Source: a virus
Taxonomy: Duplodnaviria; Caudoviricetes
IMG/VR virus record: IMGVR_UViG_3300042554_000772
Span: 760-64,759 of that record
DNA: 64,000 nt
Strand: one strand, 5' to 3'
This document shows positions 6,518 through 27,359 of this stretch, in pieces. How positions within the stretch are numbered: the first letter of the stretch is position 1; every line of letters begins with the position of its first letter. The notes below the pieces were generated by a model that searched no databases, had not been told where the DNA came from, and saw nothing but the letters and a program-made list of their open reading frames with translations. The translations under genes and the position numbers were made by a program.

Positions 6518-9500
6518 ATGCCCATAGACAAACTTATACCAAGATACTTAAACAAAGACGACGACTACCTCCTGGTTAAATCCGTGGAGATGGTTGACGC
6601 TTTGAATATTCAAACCGCAGATGACGAAGGAGGAAACGCTGGAGTTGTCAAGAATGCTCTTGGTAACGTAGTAGTAAGTACTAATAGCACAGGCGATATC
6701 CTACCGATTGGAGGGAATATAGTAATAGGAACAACGTCGTGCAAGCAAACAGGAGAAATATTTTATTTTGTATATAACGGGTTCGGAGACCATAGCATTT
6801 ATCAGTATACAAGCAAAAGGAATACTGTAAGATTGGTTTATCGGGACCAAGTCCTTAACTTTACAGCTACAGGGTTCGTTAAGGCAGACTGTTTAGTTAA
6901 AGAGAACGGGGATACACTGTTGTACTTCACTGACGGCATTACAGACCCCAAGAAGATTAACGCTACAAAAGCTTTAGCAAATACCTCTGGGTTTCTTGGT
7001 TATCCATACAGGCAGGTTGGATTAAGCGGTTATACTAGTGATGAGAAGCTTCTTAGTATCACCACTATTAAAGCCCCTCCATTAGAGGCACCAACAGTAG
7101 AGGTAACGACGGTTACTGGTATCATTTCCAACAACATAACCAAAAAGAACTTTCAGTTTGCTTATCAGTATATCTACGAAGACGGGGAGGTATCTGCTAT
7201 TTCACCTTATTCGGAATTAGCCCTTGACATAAATGATTTCCTTGACGGATTTGGTGACGCTGATTCTGACTCCAGCAGAAATGCAATAAACATAACCTAC
7301 AAGCATTCAAAAGGGGATGTTTCGAAAATAAGGATACTGTACCGTTCTGGTAATTTCCCTAATTTTTCTATATTCAAGGAAGTAGACAACAATCGCTCTT
7401 TATCTTCTGGTGTAGTTACATTCACTAATTCAACATTAGGTCAAATTATATCTGATAATGAGGTAAATAAACAATACGATGCTATCCCATTGTCAGCAAG
7501 AAGTCAAGTAATCAGCGGCAATCGGCTTTCTTATGGTAACTACCTTGAGTTTTACGATAATACCACTGTATCTGGCAATATTTTGTTAGAATACAACCAA
7601 GACGCTGGGAAAAAGACAAACATACTTTCCACAAATTTTGTTAATGGGCCTGGTACTATTGTCAGCGCCAATACTAGCGGAGTTAATAATCTGGAGTTCG
7701 AGCTGGATTTAGCAAATATGCCAGAGTCATCCTTATCCGACCCTTCTATTATATTAAATTTTTCCGTATTTATAAATAGGACCATTATAAACCAGTTAAC
7801 GTCTCCTTTTAATGTTGGGCCTTTATCTGGGATTATTGGAGGTCTTACTCTCGGCAATATGTTGTTGGATATACAGAAAAAATCAACATTTACAGCATAC
7901 TCGTCAAAAGCCGCTCTAGCATCTTCTGTAATAAACTTAATCGATGGGGATTATTTGTTCAATATTTCTCCAGAGGGAACATTGGTTAGCTCTATGACAA
8001 CCGTTTCTGGTCTCTCTATATCGCTAGTTAATGTTTATTTTGCTGGTTCTTTGGCGGCAAATGTATCAGCTGTTTCGGTTTCTGGAAGCGTTATAAAGTT
8101 TAAGATTACGCCAAAGTCAAACGGTCTTAATATAAATTCAGTAAAGATAACCCAATATAACCCATTACTACAGCAATCGTTTGATGTTACTAGCTTTTTT
8201 GCCCCTGTATCGTGGAATGGCATATCTATAAACAATTTGTACAATATAACTTATAATGGGTTAAAAATCGTCAATTTGAATAGAAGCTTTTTTATAAACG
8301 ATTCAACGTCTACAACTTTTAAATCTGGTCAAAACCATAAATTTGGTATTGTTTACTATGATTCCTATAACAGGAGTTCTGCTGTTAATGAATTAGGGGA
8401 GATTTACAATCCGACGGAAGGGGAAAGGCAAGAGGAATATGGCGCTGCCGCATTAGGGGCAGCTAAAGTCATAATAAGGCTTAAGTCAAGTCCTCCAAGT
8501 TGGGCAAAAAAATGGAGGCTTGTTTATTCACCATATCAAACTTATTCGTTTTGCTATACTTATTCTGCGGCAGAGGCTTTTGTTTCAAAGACATCTACCG
8601 CAACTGGCTCCACGCAAAATAGGTCTATTTACATATCTGCAAGGCACTTAGAGGGGAAGGATACATCATACAAAGAAAGCCGAAATTCAATCTTTAACTA
8701 CACTTATGCCCAAGGGGATAAACTAAGGATTATTAGTTACGTCCCCTCAACGGCTAACGGTGGTGCACTTTACCCAAAGCAATTCGTGTATGACATTATT
8801 GGGTATGAATACTTTGATGCGACAAACACGCCAGTGTCTTTAGCGACTGGGGCTACTAATTATAATGAAAGAGCTACTGGCCCTTTCTTCATATTGAAGG
8901 ATGAAAACTACACAGGGTTTAATGCTGATAGCATCCTAAATAATTATTCTAATTGGGCTAGTGATGTTGTTTTTGAGGTTTTTAGGCCTATCCAAAGCGT
9001 CGCTAATTCTGTGTACAGGGAGACAAAAACCCAAGGAGACGTTCTTCAGGCCAGTGGTGTTTTTTATCATCAGAGTCAATTTAGGGATAGAACTTATTCT
9101 TTTACGAATCAAAAATTAACAGTAACTAGCGGAACAGCTTATACGTCTGGGTCTATTAAATTCTATCCTGGAGACATCGTTAATATGACAGCCATATTCC
9201 CAGCTATAGGGTCCTACCAACTCACAATAAAAGACACATATAGGATATATGACGGTAGAACGGTGGTAGTCTTTAGTGGGCCACTACCAGATGCTGGGTA
9301 TAATATAGTATCCATTGCTAACATAGACGACTCTATATTGGACTCAAGTGTAGGTGATTGTTATTATAGATTAAGGCAAATAAAACTAAATCCAATCAGT
9401 GGAACAATAACAGCTTCTGGCTCATACACAACTAATCCAGCAAATGTTTCTGGTATAAGATATGTAGACTATTATGTTGAAGACACCAGTATTAGTGATT

Positions 9501-10930
9501 TTTACAAATCAGATAATCTTAGCTTAGGAAGGCCGAATGTTGTATCTTCAAACGCCAAACAGATTGAAAGAAAGTCATCCATCACCTATTCGGAGCCATA
9601 CTCGCTTGATACATCTGTATTGAAGCTATCATCATTTAACGGTGGGCAAGGGAACTTCGTGGACCTCCCGAACGCATACGGGGCTATCAATTACATGATA
9701 AACAACGGGGACACCATCACGGTTCTCCAAGAAGTAAAGTCCTCTGTAATCCCAATCAACAGGAACCTAGTAGAGTACGCTGACGGCAGTACAAACGTGA
9801 CCATATCAACGAATTACCTTGGCAATCAATCTGTTTATGCTGGAGACTACGGGACCCAGAATCCTGAGAGCGTTATGTCCTACAAGGGTCGTGTTTACTT
9901 CGCAGACGTTCGCTCTGGCAAGATTGTAAGGATTGGTGGCGACGGGATTGAGCCTATCAGCGAGAATAAGATTGACGCTTATACTCAGGACAAGTGTTTC
10001 ATCATCGCTTCTGCTAGCGGTTCATACAAGGTGATTGGCGGTATTGACCCCATGCATAATGAGTATCTAGTAACCTACACCAATGTTTCTGGTGGAACCA
10101 ATATCAAAGACACGATTGCATACGACACAGAGGATAAAGTGTGGAATACGAGGTATTCGTTCATCCCTGAGGCCTACGATAATATGGACAACTATATGTA
10201 CACATTCAAGGATGGCCGTATGTACAGGCATACTGATGCAGCTACACGCAATAGTTTCTATGGGAGTGGTACTGCTTCTACGCTTAAGTTAATATCAGCT
10301 TTCAATAACTCTATGGTCAAGGTTGCTGAAGCTTTGAGCATTGAGGGCAATAGCCAATGGTCAGCTCAAGTTAAGTCGACGATTAGCCAATCGTCTGGTT
10401 TTGAGCAGTGTTCTACGTTCATACAGCTATCTGATTACTCTTTAAAAGAGGGGATGTATTACGCTAGCATTCCAATGAATATCAATACTGGCCTTTCTCC
10501 AACGTCGAATAGAACGGTAATTGGATATGTGGCAGCTACTGGAACATGGGCTAGCGGGGCGACTATAACTTTAGGAAATCCTATTGTAGCCCCATTTCAA
10601 GCCAGTGGCAATGCATCTATCTTTTGTCTTAATGCTTCTGGAAGCATTGTTTCTACATTGGCTAGCGGAACATCGGTTTACGGCTATCAGAATATAGAAC
10701 AATTCGACAGGAACACCATACGATTAAGCAATTTAGTAGGTGCGCCACCATCAATCGCAACAGGAACCATCTTAGTCGTGGATAGCAATGCGTCTGTAGA
10801 CGGAGACCCCATTAGGGGGCCTTATTTCCTAATCGAATTAAGCAATAGCGGTATAGTACCCATTGAAGCATACGCCTTTAACGTATACTTCAGCAGGTCG
10901 AAGCTTCACAACGAATTAGTCACTCAATAG
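6518..10930 (+). CDS. tail stabilisation/muzzle protein (P22 gp10-like)
   Basis: 1470 aa; LNKDDD..L, DALNI, FQFAYQYIYEDGEVSAISPYS, FKSGQNHKFGIVYYDSYNRS, YGTQNPES, VYFADVRSG motifs. Confidence 0.8.
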   Translation: MPIDKLIPRYLNKDDDYLLVKSVEMVDALNIQTADDEGGNAGVVKNALGNVVVSTNSTGDILPIGGNIVIGTTSCKQTGEIFYFVYNGFGDHSIYQYTSKRNTVRLVYRDQVLNFTATGFVKADCLVKENGDTLLYFTDGITDPKKINATKALANTSGFLGYPYRQVGLSGYTSDEKLLSITTIKAPPLEAPTVEVTTVTGIISNNITKKNFQFAYQYIYEDGEVSAISPYSELALDINDFLDGFGDADSDSSRNAINITYKHSKGDVSKIRILYRSGNFPNFSIFKEVDNNRSLSSGVVTFTNSTLGQIISDNEVNKQYDAIPLSARSQVISGNRLSYGNYLEFYDNTTVSGNILLEYNQDAGKKTNILSTNFVNGPGTIVSANTSGVNNLEFELDLANMPESSLSDPSIILNFSVFINRTIINQLTSPFNVGPLSGIIGGLTLGNMLLDIQKKSTFTAYSSKAALASSVINLIDGDYLFNISPEGTLVSSMTTVSGLSISLVNVYFAGSLAANVSAVSVSGSVIKFKITPKSNGLNINSVKITQYNPLLQQSFDVTSFFAPVSWNGISINNLYNITYNGLKIVNLNRSFFINDSTSTTFKSGQNHKFGIVYYDSYNRSSAVNELGEIYNPTEGERQEEYGAAALGAAKVIIRLKSSPPSWAKKWRLVYSPYQTYSFCYTYSAAEAFVSKTSTATGSTQNRSIYISARHLEGKDTSYKESRNSIFNYTYAQGDKLRIISYVPSTANGGALYPKQFVYDIIGYEYFDATNTPVSLATGATNYNERATGPFFILKDENYTGFNADSILNNYSNWASDVVFEVFRPIQSVANSVYRETKTQGDVLQASGVFYHQSQFRDRTYSFTNQKLTVTSGTAYTSGSIKFYPGDIVNMTAIFPAIGSYQLTIKDTYRIYDGRTVVVFSGPLPDAGYNIVSIANIDDSILDSSVGDCYYRLRQIKLNPISGTITASGSYTTNPANVSGIRYVDYYVEDTSISDFYKSDNLSLGRPNVVSSNAKQIERKSSITYSEPYSLDTSVLKLSSFNGGQGNFVDLPNAYGAINYMINNGDTITVLQEVKSSVIPINRNLVEYADGSTNVTISTNYLGNQSVYAGDYGTQNPESVMSYKGRVYFADVRSGKIVRIGGDGIEPISENKIDAYTQDKCFIIASASGSYKVIGGIDPMHNEYLVTYTNVSGGTNIKDTIAYDTEDKVWNTRYSFIPEAYDNMDNYMYTFKDGRMYRHTDAATRNSFYGSGTASTLKLISAFNNSMVKVAEALSIEGNSQWSAQVKSTISQSSGFEQCSTFIQLSDYSLKEGMYYASIPMNINTGLSPTSNRTVIGYVAATGTWASGATITLGNPIVAPFQASGNASIFCLNASGSIVSTLASGTSVYGYQNIEQFDRNTIRLSNLVGAPPSIATGTILVVDSNASVDGDPIRGPYFLIELSNSGIVPIEAYAFNVYFSRSKLHNELVTQ

Positions 10931-10943
10931 TATCTTTACAGTT

Positions 10944-11825
10944 ATGGAATCACGCAAAAAACCCAAAAAGTATGTGGTTGGAGGCATTATCGCAGCTGGA
11001 GCTGCTGGCCTCGGTCAAGCCATCTATGGTGGTGTCCAGGCAGCGAAAGCTGGGAAGGAGCTCAAGCGCCTTCAAGGCCAAAGGCCCGATTTAAACCTCA
11101 ACGTAGGGGATACCCCTGCAGAGTACTACAAAGCCTTTAAGGAGGCCTACGACCAAGACATCATGAACCGCCAGATGGAGTCCATAAAGACTGGTCTAGC
11201 GGGGACTACAGAAGCCCTATCGGGCGCTGGAGGTCGTGCTCTCCTTGGTGGTATCGGGGCTGCTACACAGCAAGCTCAGAGGCAAATGCAAGGGGTTGCT
11301 GATATTCAGCAGCAAAGGCAAACAGAGGCCCTTGGGCAGTTGGCATCCGCCAAAGAGCGCACAAGGGACCTTCAGCTAGAAGCTCAAGCCAAGACCTTGG
11401 GTATGCGTGAGGCTAGGTCTCAGGCAGACATCGCTGGTGCACAAGCCTCTAGGGACGCTGGTATTCAGAACGTGGCTGGGGGGCTTGGGCAGATTGCATC
11501 TGCTGGAGTCTATGGTTCGGAGATGTTTGGGAAGAAGAAAGACACCGATAGCTCTTTCATACCTCCTACCATGCCTGCTAAATACACTAATAGAAAGCCG
11601 TTGACTGCTGAGAAAGGTGGAGTCGTAAAAACCCCTGGGGAGTTCTCTCACAAGAAGAACCCGATTGACATCATGAAGGACGGTAAGAAAATTGCGGAGG
11701 CTACTGGTGGGGAGTACATCTTCAACCCCAAGCAGATGAGCAATATCAAGAAGTTCGTATCGAGCAATGATAAGAACAGATTGCACAGTTATGTACGCTC
11801 CTTAATCAAGAAATTCGAGAAGTAA
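10944..11825 (+). CDS. putative ejected cargo/internal virion protein 1
   Basis: Gly/Ala-rich amphipathic helices, Q-rich coil, C-terminal GEFSH...EATGGEYIFN domain; follows the muzzle gene. Confidence 0.6.
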   Translation: MESRKKPKKYVVGGIIAAGAAGLGQAIYGGVQAAKAGKELKRLQGQRPDLNLNVGDTPAEYYKAFKEAYDQDIMNRQMESIKTGLAGTTEALSGAGGRALLGGIGAATQQAQRQMQGVADIQQQRQTEALGQLASAKERTRDLQLEAQAKTLGMREARSQADIAGAQASRDAGIQNVAGGLGQIASAGVYGSEMFGKKKDTDSSFIPPTMPAKYTNRKPLTAEKGGVVKTPGEFSHKKNPIDIMKDGKKIAEATGGEYIFNPKQMSNIKKFVSSNDKNRLHSYVRSLIKKFEK

Positions 11826-13114
11826 TGGCAGCACTTAGCAGGGCGGTAATACAACTACCAGACTTCGCTGAAATGGCTTACAAAAAGTCATTAGCGGACG
11901 AGGAGCGTCGTTTAAGGGACGAGGAGAAGCAAGAGCGCAAAGTGGCTCAGAGGCAGCGGGAAGTCGATACTTTCGGTGTCAAGCAGTCTTATTACGAGAA
12001 ATCTTTCGCATTAGAGCCAGGCGCTAAAGCGGTAGCAGGTGAAGCATATAAGGCGTTTGAACAGGCTGGTATAGAATACGAGAAGACTGGCAGCGAAGAA
12101 GCTAAGCTTAAAATGCAGAAAGCGGCTGGTGTATACAACCAAGTTGTTGGTACTGGATTAGCAATATCTAATGGTATAATGGAAGAGGCGGAGACTTTTA
12201 GAAAGAATCCTTCAGCTTTTACTTCAGAAAGTCAAAAAGTGGCAAATCAAGCAATCGCTGATAGAAAAAACATTAACTTTCAACCTGTTCTTGAGAATGG
12301 GGTTTTATTCGTTACTGAAAAAGGCAAAAAGATACCAGTTACTGAATCCGTTTATTTTTCAACTAACTTACAACCAGGCTACAACACGCTTGGTTTAGTG
12401 CCAGTTGACCCATCTACCAAGTATATGAATCCAATGGAACAGGCTCAGCTCCTATCCAAGGGTCATTCGGATGCCAATGGGGTTAAAATAGACGATGGTA
12501 CGAATATTACATATAATAAACCAGAATTAGTCAAAAAAGTTAGGGCAGCCTATGAGAATAATTTAAAGGAATACCTGCCACAGGTGGAAGCTGTTATACT
12601 TAGACATTGGACTGCAGTAAATGGTAGACCTCCTTCTCCTCAGGAAAGGGAAAGCGTTATAGCTGAGTATAAAAACCCTACCTTATTTGAATCCGCTAAG
12701 GAAAGATTCTGGAGTGAAATGTTTCCGTTTATTGATACTCCACCAACACAAAGAGGGGTTGCATCTCAGCAACGCGAGCCATCGAAGAGAGACGAAGAGC
12801 TATCTTTCTTCTTGGAGAACTCAAAGCCAACTCCTGGAGTCTTCTCAGACGGGCGTAGAGCTATTCGCTTCATGTCCCCTCCAATTAAGGACATCGAGAT
12901 TGATAACTTTAACTATACCATCAAAGAGGTATCTTTTGACAAAAAGGGAACACCGAGTATGGTTATCACTGACTCAGAGGGTGATGTTTTAAAGAATGAC
13001 TCGAAGGAGTTCAAGTCTGCATACAAGGAGGCTCTTATTGACATGAAACCGTACCTTTCAAAGTTGAGGGCGATTTCTATGAATGAGCTATCTCGCAAAC
13101 AACCATTACCATAA
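11825..13114 (+). CDS. putative ejected cargo protein 2
   Basis: Helical, charged, coupled by TAATG; position between cargo genes. Confidence 0.55.
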   Translation: MAALSRAVIQLPDFAEMAYKKSLADEERRLRDEEKQERKVAQRQREVDTFGVKQSYYEKSFALEPGAKAVAGEAYKAFEQAGIEYEKTGSEEAKLKMQKAAGVYNQVVGTGLAISNGIMEEAETFRKNPSAFTSESQKVANQAIADRKNINFQPVLENGVLFVTEKGKKIPVTESVYFSTNLQPGYNTLGLVPVDPSTKYMNPMEQAQLLSKGHSDANGVKIDDGTNITYNKPELVKKVRAAYENNLKEYLPQVEAVILRHWTAVNGRPPSPQERESVIAEYKNPTLFESAKERFWSEMFPFIDTPPTQRGVASQQREPSKRDEELSFFLENSKPTPGVFSDGRRAIRFMSPPIKDIEIDNFNYTIKEVSFDKKGTPSMVITDSEGDVLKNDSKEFKSAYKEALIDMKPYLSKLRAISMNELSRKQPLP

Positions 13115-13127: not shown

Positions 13128-16100
13128 ATGGATACAGAAGTTAAAAAGTTTGTGGAGCGCTCCATCAAAAGGGGCGACTCTTTAGCCCAAATTAAATCTA
13201 CGCTTGTTTCCTACGGCTGGGAGGAGAATGTAAACGAGGCGACAGGTTACTACGACGAGTTTAAAAAAAAAAGTCCCGCTGGAACTGGCTTAAGGGCCGC
13301 TGGGGTTTCTCCTTCGAGGCAAACGGTTACTCCGTCTTCATCGGGGTTTGCTTCTCAAGAAACTAAGAATATACCATTAGAGGACCCGCTCCTCACCAAG
13401 AAAGACGGGTATGCTAAGTCTTTGATGGAGCAGCTGAACTTAGCTGCAAAGGACAAAAACAATAGGAATAAGTACGTTCCAACCATCAACAAGCTTTGGA
13501 ATGAATACTCGTCAATCGATAGGGGAGCGCCTACCCCTTTAAGTCTATTTGAGGATAATGGGGCTATAAGCAAGAACTCATTAAATCTTCTTAATGAATC
13601 TTCTGCTAGGAATGCAGAGAGAATGAAAAGGGAAGCTATAGCAATAGCTAAAGATGATAATGTTTTAGAGTCGGGTGTAAGAAGTTTATGGGCGGGCTTA
13701 CTTGGTACAGCAAATTATCTTGGCGACTTGGTTGACCCAGATAGCTACGATGATGTGCCAGATGCAAAAACAGACCTTGAAAAGGAAGCTGAAGCTCAAT
13801 CGGCTAGGGCTCAGAAAGCCTCCTATGGACGTAAGTTATTAGCTGGGTACACGGACAAACAGATTGAAGATGGGTTCTACAAGAACTTTGCTGATGGCAA
13901 TGTAGCTACAGCACTCGGTCTGTTTGGTAGGGATGTGGTAGAGCTTCTGCCTCAAGTCGCTGCAAACGCTATCCCATACGTCGGTCTTCCCGCTCTGGCA
14001 GCGTCTGCTGGTGGTCAAGCATGGCTTAAAATTAAAGACGACGAGAAATACAACACACTCGAAAAGTTTCTGTACGCACCGCTTGTTGGTGCTGCTGAAT
14101 ATTTTACAGAGAAGTTCTTCGGCATGGATAGAAAAATGATTCAAGAAGGACTGTCAAAAGCATTCGGTAAGACCATCACATCAGCAGCTGATATCCCAAA
14201 GAAAGAGCTCGGTGATATGATTTTCGGCACACTGCCAAAAGCTGTTAGAGCTCCGTTGGAAGAAGGTTTTGAGGAAAGTCTTGTGAGCACTTTTACGCAA
14301 ACCCTTGACAAGATTATGGCTGAAAAGCCATTTGACCCTGTTGAAATCGCTGAGTCTGCTATGCTTGGTGCTGGGGCTGGTGGTTCGACATACGCATTGG
14401 TGCGAGGCAGTTCCGCTTTGCTCCAAACCCCGTTGTTCTCTGATGTATACAAGATTACGAATACCGCAGCGAATATTGACAATATACTCAAATCCAAAGA
14501 CATCAGCGACGAAGAGAGGGTTATCCTAACCGACCGATTAAACGGGTATAAGACTCAAATGAGGAAGCTTCAAGATGGGGCTAGCGAATACTACAAGCAG
14601 TTCTCACAAGAAGATAAACAGAAGACGCTTGAGCTAAATCAAACGATATCTAGAGGCATCCGCTCTTACAGCACCATGAAGACGGCTGAAGCTAAAGCTG
14701 AAACCGTAAACAGAATCAAGCAATCACTAGCCGAGAAGGCACAAATCGAACAGAAATATGATAGTGCGCAAAAACAACAAGTACCAAGTCCAGTCGTCCA
14801 AGGGGCGCAACCTGGGGGAGTTCCCGTCCAAGGAACAGGCACAGAAACGCCTCAAGCAGGTGGAGTACTTCAAGTACCTAGCCAGCAAGAAGAAAAAGTA
14901 GCAGAAGCTGCTAAGCAACCAAACGTCGGATTCAGACCTACAAAGGCTAGCCTTACATCTCAAACGCTTCCTCAGATTCTTTCTAACCTAAAGTCTTATG
15001 TTGAAAGTATTCCTGAAGAAACGCTGCAGAAGTTCGAGACAACACGCCAGTCAATTACGAATGGGTTTGAATCCGTTGCTAATGTAATATCCTCCTTTGC
15101 CAAGGAAAGTCTTAACGTCGAAGTTGAGGCCATTAACACCGAAGACGAATGGAATAAGGCAACGATGGACCCCACCACTGGAAAGCCAGAGAAGCTGTCT
15201 AGGGGCCTGTATTACCAAAGAGGACAAGAGGGGGCTCCCTCTAAGATTATCCTGTTCGCCCCAGCATTGCTTGGCAACACGGTCTATCACGAGGGTATCC
15301 ACGAGATAGTCCCACAGGCATTTGGTCAGGAGGGTATAAACAAGGTGGCTAAAGCGCTTGCAAGCGGAATAAAGCGAGACCCAGGGCTTAATGCAAAATT
15401 TGGTAACTTCTTGTCTCAATACGAGCAAGGTGACAAAAACGAAGAGCTTCTTGCTGAGTTGGGGGCAATGGTTGCAGCTGGAGATATCGATGTCGAGATT
15501 ACGAAGAGCCTCGCCACACGATTTATGGAAGCCGTAGCGAGCGTATTAGGAGCGGTTGGTATCAAGATGGCACCGAACTCTTCGCAGCTCTCTGAGGCGT
15601 TTTTAAGCTACTCACAGAAGCTCGGAGCTGGGGCTAAGCTTGATATTCAAAAGACAGCTGAAACCAAAGAGGAAGGAGACAAAAAGGGGCCAAAGAGACA
15701 AGCTGTTGGACTTAGAACGAAAGAGGAAAGTCTTGCTGAATTTGGCTTCCCAGTCGGTGATAAAGTAACCAATATCCGTCAGGTAGGTGCTGCGTTAGAG
15801 AAAAGACAACAGAAGAAGTATATTAAAATAGCTAAAAACGATACCAGCGACAAGGCAAAAGATATTATCTCAAACTATATGGTTGATGAGGTGATATTTG
15901 AACTAGAATCACTCGGTGAGTCTTCTGCTAAGGGTTGGTATGGGGAAAAGTTTCAGAAAGCACTTGATTTGCTGTCTGAGTCTATACCCAGCCTAAAAGA
16001 TAAAGGCAACAGAAATTTGTTTACCATGCTTGTTGCTATAACTTCTGATGGACAAAAGGTTATCAATAATTTCACCTATGCTATATCGTTATACAACTCT

Positions 16101-19100
16101 TACTTAAAGGATGGCGTTGTATCTGACAAATTTAATTTTGGTGGAGATAGGAATTCTGGGATGAAGATAAATGTAGGCAATATAAATAGATTAATTAAGC
16201 AATATGGGAATGATTTTGTTGCAATCAATGATTTTCTATTGCAAACAGATAGCTACGGTAATATCAAGAAGAAATACAATATAAAAAAGAGCGATTACAA
16301 AGTAACCACAACGATGCCAATTTCGGCTGGGGTATTTGGGCCTAAATTAGGAGCGTTCTTTGCGAACCTTTCTGGTCAAGAGAACTATTTGACCATGGAT
16401 AGATGGTGGAGTAGAACTTTTAATAGATATAGGGGTATACTCTTACCAACTGTAAAAGAACAGGGCAAGCAGAAGTTTTTAAATGCCATAGGAAAACCAA
16501 ACATTAGCAACAACGCCTTCCTAAAAGAGGTCAAAAAGTATGCTGACTCATACATAAAGAAAAAATACAAAAACGGTACAGCTATAGAGAAAGCGGCCAA
16601 TACCATCTATAAAGCTGCTTTTGTAGAGCTTAATGATAAGCCTTTTAATGCTGGAGATAGGGATATGATGATTGAGACAACGCAGGTTGCTCAAGAAAAA
16701 CTCAAGAAGGCTGGTTATGATTTATCAATGGCTGATATTCAGGCCATATTATGGTATTTCGAAAAAAGACTTTACGCAGAGATACAGAGCAAAAAGTCAG
16801 CAATGGACGTGGATTATTCCAATGCTGTGACCAAATTAATAGAAGGGAAAAAGGATTTATCATTCTTGCCAAACGAAGTCTCGAAAATTGTTAATGTAAA
16901 GGAATCTGAAGACGAATATGTTGATGCTATTAGTTCTCCTAGTAGCAATATTATACAGCTAGATGAAGCTGTTGATTTAGCTGCTGTTGATAAGGCCACA
17001 GAGACTATAAATAACGCTCAGAAAAGAAAGACCCCAAAGCGTCAAGGTTTTGAGGGTAAGCAGTCAGCGACATTCGTAAGAGAGTTAGATATCGCTATTA
17101 CCCCAGCGACAACCGAAAGAAAGTTTGATAAGGTAACAGCTAGAATAAAGAGCCTATCTGAGAAATACGATAGATTAGTAAAAGAGTCAGAGAAAGGGAT
17201 TGACAACTCAGAGGAGATTAATAACGTAGCCTCTCAAATACTAGATGCAGCGAGGAAACAGCTTGCTGCTAGGATTTCTAAAGTAAAAGGTGCTTCCGTT
17301 AAGTTTGACGATGATTTTAGAGGTCTGTACAACAATGTATTCGAGCCATCTTTTAACCTCAAGCTAAGGCTTACACCACAATCAAATGAGAATGAGGTAT
17401 CTCAGATTCTCAACGAGTTTGCTGAGAGATATACTCAAGATGCGTTTATCGTAGAAACAGCGTCAGAAGAATCAGAGGACTTTAGGAAGCAGTTAGGGGA
17501 AAATGTAATGCCTCTTGGCGATTACGACGAAAAGACAAATATGTCTCATTTCCCGCAACTTTATGCGGAATTTACCAGTCCTTTATCCGATAAGGAGCTA
17601 AATGAACTATCTTTGTCTTTAAGAGAAGGCGGAATTGATGGATTCTCGCTTAATAAGAAAGAATTAAAGATAACTATATTCCCATTTTTAACAGAAGAAC
17701 AAGAAAAATTATCAGAAGATGAGCAGCGAAGAATCAAAAAAGAATATTACGACGAACAAATCAGCTCAGCCCGAAAAGCTATGGCTAACGTCAGCCGAGT
17801 GGGAAGAGATGTCAAGTCAGAGGTCAGGTTCAGGAAGTCAACCTACAAAGGGGCAAAATCAACCGAAGGAGCAACCAGACAATACGATAGAGATAACTTT
17901 CTTAAAGCGCACAAAGACGGATTAACTAAGTATGAGCTGCTAGCTAAAGAGTTCAATAAGCTTCGTCTGGAGGAAATAGAGCTCTCCAAGAAAAAGGAGA
18001 AGCTACCTAATGATAAGCAAAAAAGGTATGATGAAATAAAAAGCGTCATTCAGCCTATCATCCAAGACACAATAGCTTTAAATGAGCCTTTTTACAAGGA
18101 GGCTAAGCGTGAGATAGAGAGAATTGCGTCGTCTGTTTCCCGCAACCTAAGAGGAGCATTCGTTTCTAGGTTCAACATAAAGAGACCAGAAAGGGCCTCT
18201 ATAAAGGTTATGCGATGGTATAACTCTGATATAGAAGACCTCGGTGATGGGGCTAGAGTAAATATCATCGTTGATAACGAGCAACAGGCTGACAGGCTGT
18301 TTAACGAAATCGACAAAAAGAACCCATCAAAAAACCCTGACAGGGAGAGGCGTGTAAATGAGACCACCGATTTGGGTTATCCGAAGCGTCTCATCGAGAT
18401 GGATACAAAGAATGGATTCATAGGGGAAATACAGATAATGACCCCAGAGGGGTATCTGGCTAAAGACGGGGTTGATTACTTTGACGACAATCAGCAAGAC
18501 TTTGCTAGAAAGAGACTCAAAGAAGTTCAGAATCGATTGGGATGGGCTATACCAGATGGTATAGGGCACTATTTCTATGAAATCAATCGTGACGAAAACA
18601 TAAACGACGAACTTAGGGAGCGTGCTAAAGCCCTTAGTCTTTCTTATTACAAGGCGTTTACAAACCCATCGTTTAAGTTAAGTGAAAGCGAGTTCACTAA
18701 AGAGCTGGCTAAGTTCAAAGAAGACGTAGACAAGGCTGATAAGAGCACTTGGGATGAAGGCAATAGCGGTAAATCACCAAAAACGCTAGACACCTATCTA
18801 GAAGAATCTGGAAAAAAAGAGCCAAAAGAAAGCGCACCTACTAAGAAGGCCATGCTCCAGATTATTGGTTCTAACTCACAGATGAAAGAATGGACATCTA
18901 AGATGCTATTAAAGGCAAACGAGATGGAGAGACGTGGAGTTAAGCCGAAAACAATCTTTAATGTGACTGGATGGGAGAGAGGAGCCGATAAGAAATGGAG
19001 ATACCCAGTTCCAACATTCAAGCTTAACTACACTAAAGTGGCTGAATTCAACGAAGGGCCAGTAGGTAATACGGTTAGCCTTTACGACCTTGTTGAAAAT

Positions 19101-22100
19101 AAGGGGAGGTTCAAGGAGGATACATCTAAATTCGGTTACAATAGATACGAATACGATGACAAGGGTAAGACAAGGACAAAGGAGAACGAGGACGTATTTG
19201 ATTTCTACCCAGAATTTGCTAATATGAAAGTAACGCTGGGACCATCTAATGGTTCTACGTTTTTTAAACATACGAAATCACCTGGGTCAAAAGGGCTTGG
19301 TGAAATAACTATGTCAAAAGATTGGTACAACAAGAGTCCAGACCACTTTTTCTTTGTTCTTGTTCACGAAATACAGCACGCAGTACAGAGAGAAGAGGGA
19401 TTTGCTGTTGGTGGTAGTGCATCAACCGTTGACAATGAAATCGATGAAGTTATTAAGGCAAACGAAAGAATCCTTAAAAACAAGGACAAGATTGTACCAG
19501 CTCTAAAAGAGAACATAAAAGAGCAAAAAAAGCGGATAAAATGGTATATCGACCAAGGGTATAGCCAAGAAACAATGATTAAGGATGGCGTATTGACCAC
19601 TCTTGATGGCTTAGAGACTCAGGTTCGTATGATTGACGATGTTGAGAAGCAATTAAACCTTTTAAAACAGATAAAAGCGGCTACTAATTTATCCAGCGTA
19701 GAGAAGTATAGAATCCTTTCTGGAGAGGTAGAGGCGGATAATGCTGCTAGAAGAGCTGCTTTTCAACTTGCTAAGGGGTCTCTTGCTACACAGCCGCTCA
19801 TAGATACCGAAGAAATCCCTAGAGAGTATCAGCTCATAATCACCCCAGATATCGAGGATATGTCTCTACCGTCTTTCTTGACTAAAATGGGATATCCCTC
19901 TAAACCCAAGCGTCAAGATATCTTAAGAGTAGCTGCACTGAAAGACGTGGAGAGTACGGCTAAGGCGTTAGAGGAGAAGTATTCAGCACAACCGATTAAA
20001 AGAAATGATATAATTAACAATAATCCACAAGAAATATATGCTTTATCAATAGGTATAAATCCAAGTAATTTATCCTATTTAGGTAAGGGGGATTTCGGGA
20101 AGGCATATAGCACTGACATTGGAACTGTTATAAAAATAACTTCATCAGCCAATGAGGCAGAAATAGCTTTAAGTTTAATAGGAAAAAAGGGAAACCACGC
20201 AGAAATATATGATGTAAAAAAAGTTGAAAACGAGTTTATTATACATCAAGAAGAATTAGACACTTATTCAGAAATTGAAGACAATCTACAAACAGTAGAA
20301 AATATTCTAAGCGAACAAGAATTGCCAATTCAGTATTTAGACTATTTAGACTATGACGAACTAAGTCAAGAGTCCAAAGATGAATATGATAGTTTATCGA
20401 ATTTCATTTCTGATTTAGAAGACATAAATGGACTTTATAGGAATTTAGGTATTGAAGCATCTGATTTGCAAAGTGGTAATTTAGGTTACGACAAAAACGG
20501 GAAACTAAAAGCATTTGACTTACAAGATAAATCTTCAAAGATAAAATCAAAAGATGTTAATGCAGATGCCCTTAAAGATAAAAATCAAGTAATCTCCGAA
20601 GCCTACCACGAAGCCAAGAAAGACGGGTCTAATCCTGAATTAGTCAAAGCGGTTGAGGACTTGTTGGTTGGAGAACAACAGCAACCAAAGCGCCAAGGCA
20701 TCTCAAAAGCTCAAGGGCCACTAATACCGATAGTCTACAACAGCTTGCTGCAGCAATCCACTAGGAACGCAGATGGGACGAATACCCCACCGTACACGCT
20801 TCAGGAGTGGCTGACCATGATGACCCCTTACCTGAACGCACAGACAGCTACTGCAATCTACAACGGTGTTGCAAGGAACAAGCCACCGTTCACTGCACCA
20901 AGCATCCAAGACGCTTACGATAGCTCAAAGAAACGCATGGAGGCAGGGAAGAACAAGGCTTTCTTCACATGGAACAACCTCAAGAAATACTTCATTGACA
21001 GACAGGCAGAGCTCAAGAAGGCGATTCTCGCCTCTGGGATGAAGAACGCTTACAACTATCTGGTCAACAAGGCTGGGTCTGGGGCTAGAGCTGCCTACTT
21101 CTACTACGAGAAGGAGAAGGATATCTACAAAGACCTCAAGAAGGAACAGATTGAAAAGCTCGACCAGATTATCATGCTCAGGCGTATCATCGAGATTGAT
21201 AGCAACTTCGATGAGCGTGGCGAAGCCCGCCCAAAGCACACCAACGGATTCAATAAGGGGTACGCTGAGATGGAGCTTTCAAGGCTCCAGAGTGAGCTTG
21301 GGGACGCTGCTTACAACGACCTCAACAACCGTGCAACCAAGTACTTTGATGCTTTCCGTTCGCTGTTAGACTCTATGTACGAGGAGGGGCTTGTTAGCGA
21401 GGAGCTGTACGAGCAGCTGAGGGATATCGATTACCAACCACGATTGTTCCTAGACCACGTTTTCGAGATGGATGAGCCATCCATGCGTGAGATGAACCTA
21501 AGCGCTGCACAAATCAAGCGAATCAAGGAAGGTAGCGAGGGTGACATTATGTTTGACTCAAGGTTCCTCCTAGCTCTTTATGCTAAGAGCGCATTCTCCA
21601 AGATTGCACGCAACAAGGCTAACAAGGAGATTGCCAAGGCCACCGAGGCACAGGGCAACGAGTCATGGGTATCCAAGACTGATAAGCCAGGCTTCAGCGA
21701 GGTTACTTACTTTGAAGATGGTGTCAAGAAGTCTTTCTACTTAAAGGATAACTTGAAGTCAGAGCTTGACGACATCAGCCGTGTATCAGGGATGCCTCAG
21801 AACATACAGAAGCTAATCGGTATGGTTACGGGTTCATTTGCAGTCAAGCTGTTGGCCACGAGGGCAAACCCATTGTTTGTCGCTAAGAACGTACCAAGGG
21901 ACTATCTGCACGTTCTCTTCTTCACGAAAGCATACGATAATATGTCCCTACCGCTTGCAGCCATGAGGCTCGCTGGTGACTTCATCAAGGGTGTTAAGAG
22001 CAAGCTCCAAGACGACCAAGACTTCAAGGACTTCGTTGAGTTCGGTGGTGGTATGGACTTTCTGTCCACAGAAGGAATGGAGAGTATGATTACGAACAGA

Positions 22101-23624
22101 ACTGTAACTAACAAGATTATTGAGAAGCTTGGTAAGGCTGGGGAATTATCAGAGATTGGCTTCCGCTTGGCTATGTACAAGAAATTCAAGGAAGACGGCA
22201 TGAAGGCCCTAGGACCTAACGCAACGGAGGATGAGGTTACAAGGGTTAAGGTTCAAGCTGTTACACAGGCTAGAGAGATGATTGACTTCTCTCAGGGCGG
22301 TATTGCAACGAAGAACTTGGAGATTGTCTCCCCCTACATCAACTCAGCATTCCAAGGCTTCAGGGTATCAACTAGCTACATTCAGAATAACCCCAAAGAG
22401 TTCGCTAAGAAGCTTGGATACTTATCTATCGGTGTAATGATGCTTGCGCTTTACAATGCGATGCTTGGTGACGACGATATGGAGGATATCCCAGAGGAGA
22501 CCAAGCGTAAGTACTTTATCATCATGACTCCGTTTACTTTCGAAGAGGACGGGAAGACCAAGCGTCACTATGTCAAGATAGCGAAGACACAACAGCTTGC
22601 ACCATTCATTGCTGGTCTTGAGCTGACATCGGATTACTTTGTTGCAGGGGTTATGGGGCGTAAGCCAAGAGAATCCAAGGATGCTTATGAGTACGCTTGG
22701 AAGGGGGCTACAATGTACTTCCCTAAAGACCCAAGCAACATCAAGAAAGAAATCTCTTCATCGGTTCCGTTGTTTGCTGCTATAGCTGCCTATGACATGA
22801 ATTACGACACCTACAGAGAGCGTGCTGTGTCAATGGACTACAACCAAGTGCTCCCACAGGACGAAGACTTCACCAACAAGCAAGTCCCTTACTTTTACAA
22901 GGCTCTCGCTCAAGGTATCGGTGCATCTGGCGGTGAGGCTGGCCCTAAGCGCCTTCAAGTCGCTACTGAGAAGTTCGTAACCACCCCGTATTCATCCTTG
23001 CTAACCATGGGTGCGTACACGATACTTGATTCGTTCTCAAGGCTATTCGAGCTTAAGGGCCCAGGAGGTATCCCCGTAAAAGACCAAGCAGCTATCTCTA
23101 ACAGCGTCAGCAAATCGTTAGGACTCAGTGCTTCCAAGGTGTTCACGGGTGCTACTGAGCCAGACTGGAGGAGCTACACGAGGAAGGAAGAGATTGAGCG
23201 CATCAACATGGAGGAGAAGTCCGAAAGACGTGGTATCAAGATTGCAGCTCAGAATATCGGTCAGAAGTACTTTGAGGCTTCCAACGCAAAGGATAGCAAG
23301 GCTATGAGCGAAGCTAGGAAGGAGTACCAAGATGAGTTGATGCGAATCAAAAAGGAGAGCGGTGTACCAGACGCTAAGTATTTTATGGATGCCTTCCAGC
23401 AAGCCAGAAAGTACGGGAAAGCCACCAACCCAGAGTACAACGACATCAGCTACGCTGCAAGCAACGAAGCTAAAGCGAGAATCATCATGGAGTACGGGGG
23501 TAGGACGATGAGCAGAAAAGAGTTAGTAGAATACATCAACGACTATAAGCGGAAGACTGGTAAGCCAATCAATGGTTCCGAAATCCTCCGTGAGTATCAA
23601 AAAGAAACAGGCTATGGTAAGTAA
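13128..23624 (+). CDS. giant polyvalent cargo protein (zincin, glycosylase-like, RelA/SpoT-like, LPD23-zincin, protein kinase, LPD38-like)
   Basis: HEGIH at 15288; GWY..AITS..GPKLGAF..TMDRWW..QAILW; K.PERA..K..DGAR..GY..EIQI..GH.FYE; TGWERGADKKWR plus HEIQH and GEVEA; GKGDFG..K..DLQSGN..AFD; IDFSQGG..PYINSAFQG. Confidence 0.8.
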   Translation: MDTEVKKFVERSIKRGDSLAQIKSTLVSYGWEENVNEATGYYDEFKKKSPAGTGLRAAGVSPSRQTVTPSSSGFASQETKNIPLEDPLLTKKDGYAKSLMEQLNLAAKDKNNRNKYVPTINKLWNEYSSIDRGAPTPLSLFEDNGAISKNSLNLLNESSARNAERMKREAIAIAKDDNVLESGVRSLWAGLLGTANYLGDLVDPDSYDDVPDAKTDLEKEAEAQSARAQKASYGRKLLAGYTDKQIEDGFYKNFADGNVATALGLFGRDVVELLPQVAANAIPYVGLPALAASAGGQAWLKIKDDEKYNTLEKFLYAPLVGAAEYFTEKFFGMDRKMIQEGLSKAFGKTITSAADIPKKELGDMIFGTLPKAVRAPLEEGFEESLVSTFTQTLDKIMAEKPFDPVEIAESAMLGAGAGGSTYALVRGSSALLQTPLFSDVYKITNTAANIDNILKSKDISDEERVILTDRLNGYKTQMRKLQDGASEYYKQFSQEDKQKTLELNQTISRGIRSYSTMKTAEAKAETVNRIKQSLAEKAQIEQKYDSAQKQQVPSPVVQGAQPGGVPVQGTGTETPQAGGVLQVPSQQEEKVAEAAKQPNVGFRPTKASLTSQTLPQILSNLKSYVESIPEETLQKFETTRQSITNGFESVANVISSFAKESLNVEVEAINTEDEWNKATMDPTTGKPEKLSRGLYYQRGQEGAPSKIILFAPALLGNTVYHEGIHEIVPQAFGQEGINKVAKALASGIKRDPGLNAKFGNFLSQYEQGDKNEELLAELGAMVAAGDIDVEITKSLATRFMEAVASVLGAVGIKMAPNSSQLSEAFLSYSQKLGAGAKLDIQKTAETKEEGDKKGPKRQAVGLRTKEESLAEFGFPVGDKVTNIRQVGAALEKRQQKKYIKIAKNDTSDKAKDIISNYMVDEVIFELESLGESSAKGWYGEKFQKALDLLSESIPSLKDKGNRNLFTMLVAITSDGQKVINNFTYAISLYNSYLKDGVVSDKFNFGGDRNSGMKINVGNINRLIKQYGNDFVAINDFLLQTDSYGNIKKKYNIKKSDYKVTTTMPISAGVFGPKLGAFFANLSGQENYLTMDRWWSRTFNRYRGILLPTVKEQGKQKFLNAIGKPNISNNAFLKEVKKYADSYIKKKYKNGTAIEKAANTIYKAAFVELNDKPFNAGDRDMMIETTQVAQEKLKKAGYDLSMADIQAILWYFEKRLYAEIQSKKSAMDVDYSNAVTKLIEGKKDLSFLPNEVSKIVNVKESEDEYVDAISSPSSNIIQLDEAVDLAAVDKATETINNAQKRKTPKRQGFEGKQSATFVRELDIAITPATTERKFDKVTARIKSLSEKYDRLVKESEKGIDNSEEINNVASQILDAARKQLAARISKVKGASVKFDDDFRGLYNNVFEPSFNLKLRLTPQSNENEVSQILNEFAERYTQDAFIVETASEESEDFRKQLGENVMPLGDYDEKTNMSHFPQLYAEFTSPLSDKELNELSLSLREGGIDGFSLNKKELKITIFPFLTEEQEKLSEDEQRRIKKEYYDEQISSARKAMANVSRVGRDVKSEVRFRKSTYKGAKSTEGATRQYDRDNFLKAHKDGLTKYELLAKEFNKLRLEEIELSKKKEKLPNDKQKRYDEIKSVIQPIIQDTIALNEPFYKEAKREIERIASSVSRNLRGAFVSRFNIKRPERASIKVMRWYNSDIEDLGDGARVNIIVDNEQQADRLFNEIDKKNPSKNPDRERRVNETTDLGYPKRLIEMDTKNGFIGEIQIMTPEGYLAKDGVDYFDDNQQDFARKRLKEVQNRLGWAIPDGIGHYFYEINRDENINDELRERAKALSLSYYKAFTNPSFKLSESEFTKELAKFKEDVDKADKSTWDEGNSGKSPKTLDTYLEESGKKEPKESAPTKKAMLQIIGSNSQMKEWTSKMLLKANEMERRGVKPKTIFNVTGWERGADKKWRYPVPTFKLNYTKVAEFNEGPVGNTVSLYDLVENKGRFKEDTSKFGYNRYEYDDKGKTRTKENEDVFDFYPEFANMKVTLGPSNGSTFFKHTKSPGSKGLGEITMSKDWYNKSPDHFFFVLVHEIQHAVQREEGFAVGGSASTVDNEIDEVIKANERILKNKDKIVPALKENIKEQKKRIKWYIDQGYSQETMIKDGVLTTLDGLETQVRMIDDVEKQLNLLKQIKAATNLSSVEKYRILSGEVEADNAARRAAFQLAKGSLATQPLIDTEEIPREYQLIITPDIEDMSLPSFLTKMGYPSKPKRQDILRVAALKDVESTAKALEEKYSAQPIKRNDIINNNPQEIYALSIGINPSNLSYLGKGDFGKAYSTDIGTVIKITSSANEAEIALSLIGKKGNHAEIYDVKKVENEFIIHQEELDTYSEIEDNLQTVENILSEQELPIQYLDYLDYDELSQESKDEYDSLSNFISDLEDINGLYRNLGIEASDLQSGNLGYDKNGKLKAFDLQDKSSKIKSKDVNADALKDKNQVISEAYHEAKKDGSNPELVKAVEDLLVGEQQQPKRQGISKAQGPLIPIVYNSLLQQSTRNADGTNTPPYTLQEWLTMMTPYLNAQTATAIYNGVARNKPPFTAPSIQDAYDSSKKRMEAGKNKAFFTWNNLKKYFIDRQAELKKAILASGMKNAYNYLVNKAGSGARAAYFYYEKEKDIYKDLKKEQIEKLDQIIMLRRIIEIDSNFDERGEARPKHTNGFNKGYAEMELSRLQSELGDAAYNDLNNRATKYFDAFRSLLDSMYEEGLVSEELYEQLRDIDYQPRLFLDHVFEMDEPSMREMNLSAAQIKRIKEGSEGDIMFDSRFLLALYAKSAFSKIARNKANKEIAKATEAQGNESWVSKTDKPGFSEVTYFEDGVKKSFYLKDNLKSELDDISRVSGMPQNIQKLIGMVTGSFAVKLLATRANPLFVAKNVPRDYLHVLFFTKAYDNMSLPLAAMRLAGDFIKGVKSKLQDDQDFKDFVEFGGGMDFLSTEGMESMITNRTVTNKIIEKLGKAGELSEIGFRLAMYKKFKEDGMKALGPNATEDEVTRVKVQAVTQAREMIDFSQGGIATKNLEIVSPYINSAFQGFRVSTSYIQNNPKEFAKKLGYLSIGVMMLALYNAMLGDDDMEDIPEETKRKYFIIMTPFTFEEDGKTKRHYVKIAKTQQLAPFIAGLELTSDYFVAGVMGRKPRESKDAYEYAWKGATMYFPKDPSNIKKEISSSVPLFAAIAAYDMNYDTYRERAVSMDYNQVLPQDEDFTNKQVPYFYKALAQGIGASGGEAGPKRLQVATEKFVTTPYSSLLTMGAYTILDSFSRLFELKGPGGIPVKDQAAISNSVSKSLGLSASKVFTGATEPDWRSYTRKEEIERINMEEKSERRGIKIAAQNIGQKYFEASNAKDSKAMSEARKEYQDELMRIKKESGVPDAKYFMDAFQQARKYGKATNPEYNDISYAASNEAKARIIMEYGGRTMSRKELVEYINDYKRKTGKPINGSEILREYQKETGYGK
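13263..13366 (+). other. A10 slippery tract and -1 frame extension KSRWNWLKGRWGFSFEANGYSVFIGVCFSRN*
   Basis: TTT AAA AAA AAA AGT at codons 45-49; the -1 frame is open to TAA 13364-13366 with preferred C/G-ending codons. Confidence 0.5.
14758..14901 (+). CDS. nested 47-aa basic protein in the +1 frame of the giant gene
   Basis: MIVRKNNKYQVQSSKGRNLGEFPSKEQAQKRLKQVEYFKYLASKKKK; A-rich start context; resembles a small phage family of form MIRK..RNLG.F...A.KRL.QVEYFK. Confidence 0.75.
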   Translation: MIVRKNNKYQVQSSKGRNLGEFPSKEQAQKRLKQVEYFKYLASKKKK

Positions 23625-24048
23625 ATTTGCACTCAAGATATGTTTAACGGGTTTCTTCTGTTTATTGGCTTCATGTTCGCCAGAATGGCATCTAAAGCGT
23701 GCAATAAGAAAGAATCCTATGATAGTGAAGACCGACACCCTAAAGGTTAGGGATACGTTCTACACGCCAGCGGTATACGTTACAGATACATTCGTTACGA
23801 AACAATACGACACCATCGAAATCATCAAGGACAAATTACAAATCAAAATCGTAAAATCAAATGATACTATTAGAGTTACTGGGGCTTGCAAATCGGATAC
23901 AATCGTGCGGACTGTTTCGGTCCCCGTTGAAAGGGTTGTTTACAAAGAAGCCAAGAAGAGCAAGCCTTTCGAGTATTTCTCAAGTGCGGTTTGGGGATTC
24001 GCAGCAGTATTACTGCTAGTCATTATCTACCGCTCTGAGAGGCGATAA
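23614..24048 (+). CDS. putative unimolecular spanin
   Basis: Lipobox LLASC, beta-rich DT repeats, C-terminal TM (AVWGFAAVLLLVIIY) followed by basic residues. Confidence 0.65.
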   Translation: MVSKFALKICLTGFFCLLASCSPEWHLKRAIRKNPMIVKTDTLKVRDTFYTPAVYVTDTFVTKQYDTIEIIKDKLQIKIVKSNDTIRVTGACKSDTIVRTVSVPVERVVYKEAKKSKPFEYFSSAVWGFAAVLLLVIIYRSERR

Positions 24049-26839: not shown

Positions 26840-27350
26840 CGTTGAGTGGTTTAATGATGTACCAACTGTCTTGCTGTGGGTTTTCCGAAGCCGTGAACTC
26901 CTTGCCAATGATAGCAGTGAATTCTTCTAACGCTTTCCTGACCCCTTCAAGGCTTCTGTCATGACCACACAAGATGCCACCATTTTTAACCTTTGGCCAA
27001 TACTTGTTCATATCATGCAAAGCCCATTCGTAAGAGTGGTCTCCATCTACGTATACGAAATCGTACTTTCCGTCCTCCATATCCTCTAACGCAGAATCGC
27101 TGTACTTTTTAAGCAACGTGAATCTATTGGACTCTATGTGTTCTTTTAGATTCTCATTCGCCAACCTTTCTCTCTCAGACATATATTCAGCGGAAACATA
27201 TCCCCACCAATCTTTATATCCTTCGAATGGGTCAATGCCTATAAGCTTTAAGTTTCCAAGCTCATCTAGCATTCTTTTTGAATTCAATCCTTCTGCTACT
27301 CCTATCTCAACACCAAGCAATTCTTTGTCTTTGTCTAAATGTTCGTACAT
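26832..27350 (-). CDS. class I SAM-dependent methyltransferase
   Basis: GVEIGVAEG, DFVYVDGDHSYE, GGILCGHD. Confidence 0.85.
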   Translation of the reverse strand: MYEHLDKDKELLGVEIGVAEGLNSKRMLDELGNLKLIGIDPFEGYKDWWGYVSAEYMSERERLANENLKEHIESNRFTLLKKYSDSALEDMEDGKYDFVYVDGDHSYEWALHDMNKYWPKVKNGGILCGHDRSLEGVRKALEEFTAIIGKEFTASENPQQDSWYIIKPLNDE

Positions 27351-27359
27351 ACTATTGGT

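Follow-up and report, generated by a model that had tools for sequence, protein, structure and literature searches.

Polyvalent proteins, in which disparate domains are joined in one chain, were described in 2017 by Iyer, Burroughs, Anand, de Souza, and Aravind, who predicted them to be injected and to be processed by zincins, and who listed LPD38 and RelA/SpoT as phage-only (PMC5512222). The same authors treat gp50 of phage N4 (Schitoviridae) as a polyvalent protein with an MPTase domain (PMC5512222); this virion RNA polymerase (RNAP), about 3,500 residues long, is ejected together with the DNA (PMC13434306). The virion RNAP gp66 of Cellulophaga phage phi14:2 is also described as packaged in the virion (Drobysheva et al., 10.1101/2020.03.07.982082). 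Here we analyzed a giant gene of a tailed phage (Caudoviricetes) in IMG/VR record IMGVR_UViG_3300042554_000772. The window, meaning the whole 64,000-nt stretch that was analyzed, covers bases 760-64759 of the 64,759-bp source contig. The giant gene encodes 3,498 amino acids (aa), and its product is a phage-type polyvalent protein, an already described class, and not an RNA polymerase. Neither the class of protein nor the group of phages is new, and the general idea of processing is known as well. New here are a recurring Gln-ending tag at the module joints and cassette exchange seen at codon resolution; in the excerpts of the literature covered, including that of PMC5512222, we found no defined cleavage motif for polyvalent proteins.

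A search of a large protein collection at E<=1e-3 yielded the query and 103 other giant proteins (104 in all). Among the Pfam domains precomputed for this set are ART-PolyVal, Kinase-PolyVal, LPD22/23/38, and methylases, which typify the polyvalent proteins described by Iyer et al. When the query was compared by BLAST with its 103 relatives, sharp homology breakpoints delimited six modules, A to F. The breakpoints at aa 847/848, 1301-1316, 2254-2271, and 2514-2521 coincide with sites of the tetrapeptide PKRQ. The giant protein carries four copies of PKRQ, at aa 855, 1303, 2260, and 2520, against 0.023 expected, and all four copies found in the six frames of the genome fall within the giant open reading frame (ORF). 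The features of the single unbroken ORF are as follows.

13128..23624, + strand: giant ORF of 3,498 aa that closes the structural operon and encodes a polyvalent protein of the phage type (ORF, Pfam, relatives, fold)
13128..15689, + strand: module A, aa 1-854, conserved N-terminal chassis (homology stops at aa 847/848 in many relatives)
15288..15302, + strand: HEGIH zincin motif, aa 721-725, candidate processing protease (conserved in a 25-sequence alignment)
15690..15701, + strand: PKRQ tag 1, aa 855-858, joint A|B (breakpoint)
15702..17033, + strand: module B, aa 859-1302, DUF7178-like (sub-cut-off Pfam match to DUF7178, E 0.016; Atlas clusters)
17034..17045, + strand: PKRQ tag 2, aa 1303-1306, joint B|C (breakpoint)
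17046..18860, + strand: module C, aa 1307-1911, ending in KKAMLQ, a Gln-ending variant joint (breakpoints, alignment)
18099..18593, + strand: RelA/SpoT-like nucleotide pyrophosphokinase domain, aa 1658-1822 (match to Tas1, 6ox6)
18861..19904, + strand: module D, aa 1912-2259, with LPD23 (aa 1923-1961) and a second zincin motif, HEIQH (aa 2080) (Pfam, motif)
19905..19916, + strand: PKRQ tag 3, aa 2260-2263, joint D|E, where identity to contig L006 resumes exactly (breakpoint, L006)
19917..20684, + strand: module E, aa 2264-2519, truncated protein-kinase-like, ending just past the DFG-equivalent Asp (alignment, profile, Atlas)
20685..20696, + strand: PKRQ tag 4, aa 2520-2523, joint E|F (breakpoint)
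20697..23621, + strand: module F, aa 2524-3498, conserved C-terminal chassis, mainly helical, with an LPD38 region at aa 3115-3278 (model, BFVD)

Comparing the window with contig L006, which is 92-97 % identical, we find an exchange that resolves to a single codon. L006 lacks the block at window 18820-19904, and identity resumes at the first PKRQ codon, at 19905. The missing block comprises module D and the last 14 residues of module C (the KKAMLQ linker). Across the family, PKRQ is present in 15 of the 104 proteins, in 30 distinct contexts in which differing module ends and starts are paired through the tag. It directly precedes module F in 14 of the 14 closest relatives, where it stands behind seven different upstream modules. 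More distant clades carry K-x-K-x-Q or KVKR[Q/M] before module F and [V/P]-[K/R]-x-Q after module A. The synonymous codons differ among the four PKRQ sites (CCA or CCC for Pro; AGA, CGT, or CGC for Arg), which points to selection on the peptide. The linkers were modeled with low confidence, the predicted local distance difference test (pLDDT) score being <50 for residues 806-848 of the module A model and residues 1-7 of the module F model. A search for related loci with the single module F sequence gave only 2 close loci.

From these observations we propose, with a probability of roughly 60 %, that the polyvalent protein is packed in the capsid and expelled with the DNA, that zincin-cut tags free its cassettes, and that transcription is left to the host RNAP. 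The giant protein would most likely enter a Bacteroidota host together with the DNA. Module A, with its HExxH motif, and module F, a helical LPD38 module with one hydrophobic helix, would serve as conserved chassis ends, and the four modules between them, B, C, D, and E, would be exchangeable cassettes. The joints carry a basic-x-Gln tag, four times as PKRQ and once as KKAMLQ, and these are our proposed cleavage sites, with Gln at P1. The PKRQ tags probably mark cleavage into separate host-attacking enzymes. The module A zincin would most likely be the reader of the tags, releasing the cassettes either in the capsid head or inside the host, and the phage would lack its own polymerase and be transcribed by the host enzyme. 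An earlier note on this DNA had spoken of an injected multi-effector polyprotein. This description agrees with the class, which was predicted to be injected by Iyer et al. in 2017; injection and cleavage themselves, as well as packaging, the identity of the protease, and the targets, we infer.

The giant protein may also work as an uncut single polypeptide, its PKRQ joints being flexible linkers kept where recombination is tolerated and not protease sites. Some polyvalent proteins are indeed transferred full-length according to Iyer et al. (PMC5512222), the L006 DNA mosaic recombines exactly at a tag, and module A has no match to a zincin fold or to the MPTase family. However, a mere linker would not require four particular residues, and here these residues are conserved although their synonymous codons vary. 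The Gln at the same joint also persists to 25-40 % identity, where the surrounding linker is unalignable. In addition, 12 nt are too short alone to guide homologous recombination, which counts against linkers that are kept for recombination only. Taken together, we regard the uncut chain as unlikely.

Module A is the candidate source of the cleaving enzyme. The module is helical to about aa 550 and disordered at 545-605, and then forms a small alpha/beta domain carrying HEGIH; in the AlphaFold model (mean pLDDT 57.9), three strands are followed by the motif helix at 718-726. In an alignment of 25 sequences, E722 is invariant, and Y720, H721, and H725 are each kept in at least 90 %. Owing to this conservation of E722, H721, and H725, the module A HExxH is the best candidate protease, and it is present in nearly all tag-carrying relatives. 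The zincin (HEGIH) of the earlier note is borne out as a conserved motif at aa 721; neither the MPTase Pfam family nor a zincin fold of the PDB was matched. Performing Foldseek against the PDB, we obtained nothing for module A at E<=1e-3 (best E 0.39). Many sigma-70 chains appeared in this search with a probability of <=0.08 and a TM-score of about 0.05-0.12, and we treated them as helical noise.

The tags could be cut by another protease, for which the candidates are a host enzyme, the zincin of module D, and a capsid maturation protease that escaped recognition. In favor of such an enzyme, a preference for Gln at P1 is characteristic of chymotrypsin-like viral proteases and not of zincins. 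It could be encoded in the head region, where ORFs of 388 aa and 598 aa have no family match and the only PHROGs matched by a 242-aa ORF are of minor-head or unknown function. Against this, scanning 40 ORFs with PHROGs or Pfam revealed no protease family, many relatives have the tags and yet lack module D, and the module A HExxH accompanies the tags in nearly all relatives. We therefore consider cleavage by another protease unlikely. Gln-specific polyprotein processing is known from RNA viruses, and the T4 head protease cuts capsid-targeting peptides. The giant protein resembles these systems in having short conserved tags between or before cargo units, where in those systems a viral protease cuts after a fixed residue. 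It differs from them in that neither a chymotrypsin-like nor an assemblin-like protease was detected; two HExxH motifs are all that resembles a protease.

Returning to the reading in which the module A zincin cuts the tags, we find that several points weigh against it. The C|D joint is without PKRQ and reads KKAMLQ|IIG, and PKRQ itself is confined to the closest clade (the 15 proteins of 104 noted above). A generalised tag pattern is only about 2-fold more frequent than in shuffles (198 vs 95.8, all 104 proteins), and the conserved joints could merely mark where recombinants stay viable. Zincins are not known for P1-Gln specificity. Pfam MPTase-PolyVal does not match the HEGIH region at E<=10, and with the poor module A model (pLDDT as above) Foldseek finds no zincin in the PDB. 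As for packaging, phage phi46:3 has a homologue of module F (gp120 and gp121) among its virion structural genes, and gp120 is annotated as a virion structural protein, a label that carries no stated experimental basis. Finally, the giant protein of MW202828, the nearest relative by TerL, is dissimilar to modules A and F. The A/F chassis is thus not universal in this phage group, and even the chassis is replaceable within it. The MW202828 giant protein does share modules with proteins that in turn share module C with the query protein. We also observed that it occupies the same slot in its own genome (L005, 741-12320, 3,859 aa) and has two HExxH motifs.

We next describe the conserved C-terminal end. 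The AlphaFold model of module F (975 aa) has a mean pLDDT of 70.3. Searching BFVD with this fold, we obtained 108 matches at E<=1e-3, which were C-terminal parts of phage polyvalent proteins. The top matches had a TMq of about 0.5-0.67, and the targets were labelled LPD38, RelA/SpoT, LT_GEWL, or methylase. By sequence, Pfam LPD38 at aa 3115-3278 stays under its cut-off (E 1.3e-3; 19.3 bits vs 27), and by fold the module matches LPD38-labelled phage proteins (e.g. E 3.9e-17), which bears out the earlier assignment of this region as LPD38-like. The PDB gave no match to the module F fold at E<=1e-3, and a PDB profile search with a 10-sequence module F alignment returned DnaJ only (E 0.15). By hydropathy, the only strongly hydrophobic helix of the giant protein lies in this module at aa 3096-3114. 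An acidic GDDDMEDIP patch, conserved across the family, follows the helix (aa 3096-3125, window 22413-22502 for the two together). The helix and the patch may form a membrane-contacting element of an ejection module.

The cassettes between the two ends differ in how well they can be assigned. In module C, aa 1658-1822 match the toxin domain of Tas1 (PDB 6ox6) with E 1.2e-4 for the whole protein and E 1.3e-5 for the module alone. The alignment spans 165 aa at low identity and includes a GEIQ motif common to both proteins, in agreement with the RelA/SpoT-like module predicted from the sequence; the Pfam RelA_SpoT model itself is unmatched in the giant protein. Tas1 is a type VI secretion effector of Pseudomonas aeruginosa, and both it and module C would be delivered enzymes acting on the bacterial cell. 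Unlike Tas1, module C would be delivered by phage ejection and not by a secretion system. In module D, Pfam LPD23 passes its cut-off (E 1.8e-9; 37.7 bits vs 27), and with HEIQH at aa 2080 the predicted LPD23-zincin combination is borne out.

Module E has 292 short relatives; most of them stand alone, are about 190 aa long, and belong to no Pfam family. Aligning 32 sequences (the query and 31 of the 120 listed), we find GxGDFG, a Lys, a Glu, D-x4-N, and a final AFD to be invariant; these correspond to the Gly-rich loop, beta3 Lys, alphaC Glu, D-x4-N, and DFG Asp. A module E profile against the PDB gave 48 sequences at E<=10, of which 45 are Ser/Thr kinases that align from the Gly loop to the DFG position, with a best E of only 0.077. 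The Atlas search placed a T7-type kinase at rank 12 (score 0.94), and PDB phmmer with module E alone returned nothing. The protein kinase call of the earlier note is thus plausible: the core motifs hold, and the structural database matches are weak. The stand-alone phage proteins (P0121-P0239) carry all kinase core motifs and end a few residues past the DFG-equivalent Asp; some of them are encoded on contigs of up to 293 kb.

Module B had been called glycosylase-like. This was not supported, as the only leads point to DUF7178, namely the sub-cut-off Pfam match and Atlas scores of 0.95-0.96 to viral clusters, 14-33 % of whose members carry DUF7178, and there was no PDB match for aa ~859-1302. 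With tblastn, module B matched 39-kb phages.

Searching the giant protein as a whole, we obtained no PHROGs family, no Pfam domain at E<=1 apart from LPD23 and LPD38, and Tas1 as the sole match among PDB sequences at E<=1; NCBIfam searches with the six modules gave nothing meaningful. The chain nevertheless combines RelA/SpoT-like, kinase-like, and LPD23 regions with two HExxH motifs, and its LPD domains are those of the polyvalent class. It is thus like the polyvalent proteins of PMC5512222 in its unrelated enzyme domains, its LPD23, LPD38, and RelA/SpoT content, its zincin motifs, and its neighbourhood of virion genes. It is unlike them, as described in 2017, in its explicit recurring PKRQ tag and in a zincin that MPTase-PolyVal does not match.

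The giant gene is the final gene of a long + strand structural block, and the genes flip to the - strand directly after it. It sits three genes after a muzzle-like gene. The features that define this setting are listed below.

6518..10930, + strand: muzzle-like tail protein, 1,470 aa, 5' of the giant gene (Pfam crAss_MUZ_C; phrog_14478)
10944..13114, + strand: two ORFs, 293 aa and 429 aa, between the muzzle-like and giant genes, in the cargo-gene position (no family match)
57907..62549, + strand: TerL and portal (phrog_6681 and phrog_6547, both PHROGs common to phi14:2)

This order parallels that of phi14:2, in which gp66, bearing DFDID, lies five genes after the muzzle gene g071. The giant gene therefore stands, as the earlier note had stated, in the position of a virion RNAP at the end of the structural operon. 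A giant gene also fills the terminal slot in Maribacter phage Panino (1,829 aa) and in MW202828. Panino, like phi46:3, has a homologue of module F. The likeness to gp66 covers the giant size, the place at the end of the structural operon 3' of a muzzle gene, and the common TerL and portal PHROGs. Unlike gp66, the giant protein has no D-x-D-x-D motif, no sequence similarity to the polymerase, and no barrel in its modelled parts, and it carries effector enzymes instead of a polymerase. Its size is also similar to that of N4 gp50, but the core of gp50 is a T7-like RNAP; PF00940 is unmatched here, a search that lacked a working control.

We tested the giant protein and the rest of the genome for an RNAP. 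We confirmed that D-x-D-x-D is absent from all 3,498 aa of the giant protein and from the relatives P0002-P0024; the control gp66 has DFDID at aa 1361. Only 3 genome ORFs of >=150 aa contain the motif. One of these, the 598-aa ORF with DFDFD that directly follows the portal gene (window 62856-64000 and on across the contig ends), was rejected as an RNAP since the motif is kept in 0 of the 10 homologues examined (150 listed, 657 found). Its homologues are repeat proteins with 3-8 matched stretches, and searches of Pfam, PHROGs, the PDB, and the phage collection with the ORF itself gave nothing. Performing phmmer with gp66 against the 334 stop-to-stop ORFs of the genome, we found no match at E<=0.1. 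Gp66 reached 147 crAss-type records by tblastn at 22-27 % identity; among the summary counts and the matches listed, there was no record of an elemo phage, Pachyviridae, or Pervagoviridae. PF00623 was absent from the genome and present in 14 of 14 control genomes, and PF00940, absent too, matched no control genome either and is uninformative. Modules A and F, the parts that were folded, gave mainly helical models in which no barrel appears, and their significant PDB matches included no RNAP.

A very divergent RNAP hidden in the giant protein or in another gene, so that the lineage would not be RNAP-less, might escape such tests. RNAPs of the crAss type are extremely divergent, and the epsilon crAss group, reported to be without the transcription block (Yutin 2021, PMC7886860), was later assigned a divergent virion RNAP by HHpred (PMC11054128). 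Because that enzyme was missed and then found, claims of absence in the present assemblage are fragile. The module A model is of low confidence, modules B to E are outside the fold test, and the small ORFs were not all scanned. Set against this are the motif counts, the null results with gp66 and PF00623, and the helical models of A and F given above, and we hold a hidden polymerase to be very improbable. The "RNAP-less" label of the earlier note accordingly holds by motif, by gp66 sequence, and by Pfam across the genome, and by fold only for modules A and F, with A at low confidence.

The earlier note had also pointed to TAnnTTTG promoters of the host type on both strands. The element is not enriched overall (43 matches vs 45.8 +/- 7.3 expected). 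What remains of the claim is seven of the 43 copies (four on the + and three on the - strand), each correctly oriented and 14-26 nt ahead of a start codon. A -33 TTTG element is not consistent upstream of the seven, and the giant gene itself is not preceded by a well-placed copy. One of the seven follows a terminator-like hairpin: at window 4884-4963, the hairpin and a T-run stand directly before the TATATTTG element, 20 nt upstream of the start at 4964. The placement of these elements is compatible with transcription by host RNAP, for which it is weak evidence.

We then placed the phage itself. The first and last 232 bases of the contig are identical but for one mismatch. Given this end repeat, the genome is complete at about 64.5 kb, and its computed completeness estimate is 100. 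TerL is 50 % identical to that of MW202828 (60.9 kb), 40 % to that of Panino, 39.5 % to those of Flavobacterium elemo phages, and 34-37 % to those of Cellulophaga phages phi18:3, phi19:3, and phi38:1. Against the crassviruses listed, identity is about 23-35 % over partial stretches (11-61 % of the query). The phages with the closest TerL have genomes of 60-77 kb. With the crassvirus phi14:2, the phage has the PHROGs of TerL (phrog_6681) and portal (phrog_6547) in common. Pfam crAss_MUZ_C on the 1,470-aa protein is borderline (E 8.5e-6; 26.6 bits vs a cut-off of 27), and the main crAss_MUZ domain is unmatched there, with phi14:2 g071 as the control. When 22 structural proteins of phi14:2 were searched by phmmer against the 334 ORFs, TerL was the sole match, so the synteny with crassviruses rests on gene order and PHROGs.

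Evseev et al. (2023; PMC9855967) place Pachyviridae and Pervagoviridae as relatives adjacent to Crassvirales. From the PHROGs, the TerL identities, the borderline muzzle match, and this placement, sequence comparison assigns the phage to a sister group of Crassvirales, near Pachyviridae and Pervagoviridae isolates and outside Crassvirales. Among the hallmarks of the order, the TerL and portal type are present, no virion RNAP was found, and the genome falls short of ~90-105 kb. The crAss-like lineage of the earlier note is therefore related to crassviruses by its TerL and portal PHROGs, and at 64.5 kb it is a sister group and not a true crassvirus. The phage belongs to an assemblage of ~60-77 kb flavobacterial podoviruses, comprising the elemo phages, Panino, Pachyviridae, and Pervagoviridae; since this includes cultured phages, it is not a hidden new lineage.

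Some further observations concern the surroundings of the giant gene. A 158-aa ORF at window 23572-24048 (+ strand) shares 53 nt with the 3' end of the giant gene but is read in another frame; it has 91 % DNA identity to L006 and no family match. Just 3' of the giant gene lies a variable island (window 24048-27359) with glycosyltransferase-like, C-methyltransferase, epimerase-like, and DNA-methyltransferase-like genes, and in L006 (91-97 % identical here) ~1.3 kb of different DNA replaces it. Away from the structural block, a collagen-repeat ORF (window 31007-32047, - strand) lies between two ribonucleotide reductase genes and matches 47 PHROGs, of which most of the 25 listed are tail-fibre or tail families. 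The 40 ORFs scanned include primase/helicase and ribonucleotide reductase, and no DNA polymerase was seen among them; a 483-aa ORF at 46530-47981 (- strand) had no match in the same PHROGs and Pfam scan.

Among phage weapons, polyvalent proteins are the ones predicted to enter the cell first, and the question is how one giant chain becomes several enzymes. This locus offers five candidate cut sites, candidate protease residues (H721, E722, and H725), and natural variants that differ by a single cassette, which make the processing idea directly testable. If the proposed cleavage is true, cassettes would swap between phages as ready-to-release units, and the processing idea of 2017, as yet unproven, would gain exact cut sites to test. 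More tentatively, and as something possible that we do not favor, the sister lineages of Crassvirales may have one homologous ejection slot (muzzle, cargo, terminal giant gene) with alternative payloads and a private basic-x-Gln code read by the module A zincin. Crassviruses would then load that slot with a virion RNAP, and the present phage with a string of effectors that processes itself. In relatives of crassviruses, the polymerase position would be taken by enzymes for host takeover, with transcription left to the host RNAP, which bears on the origin of the crAss virion RNAP.

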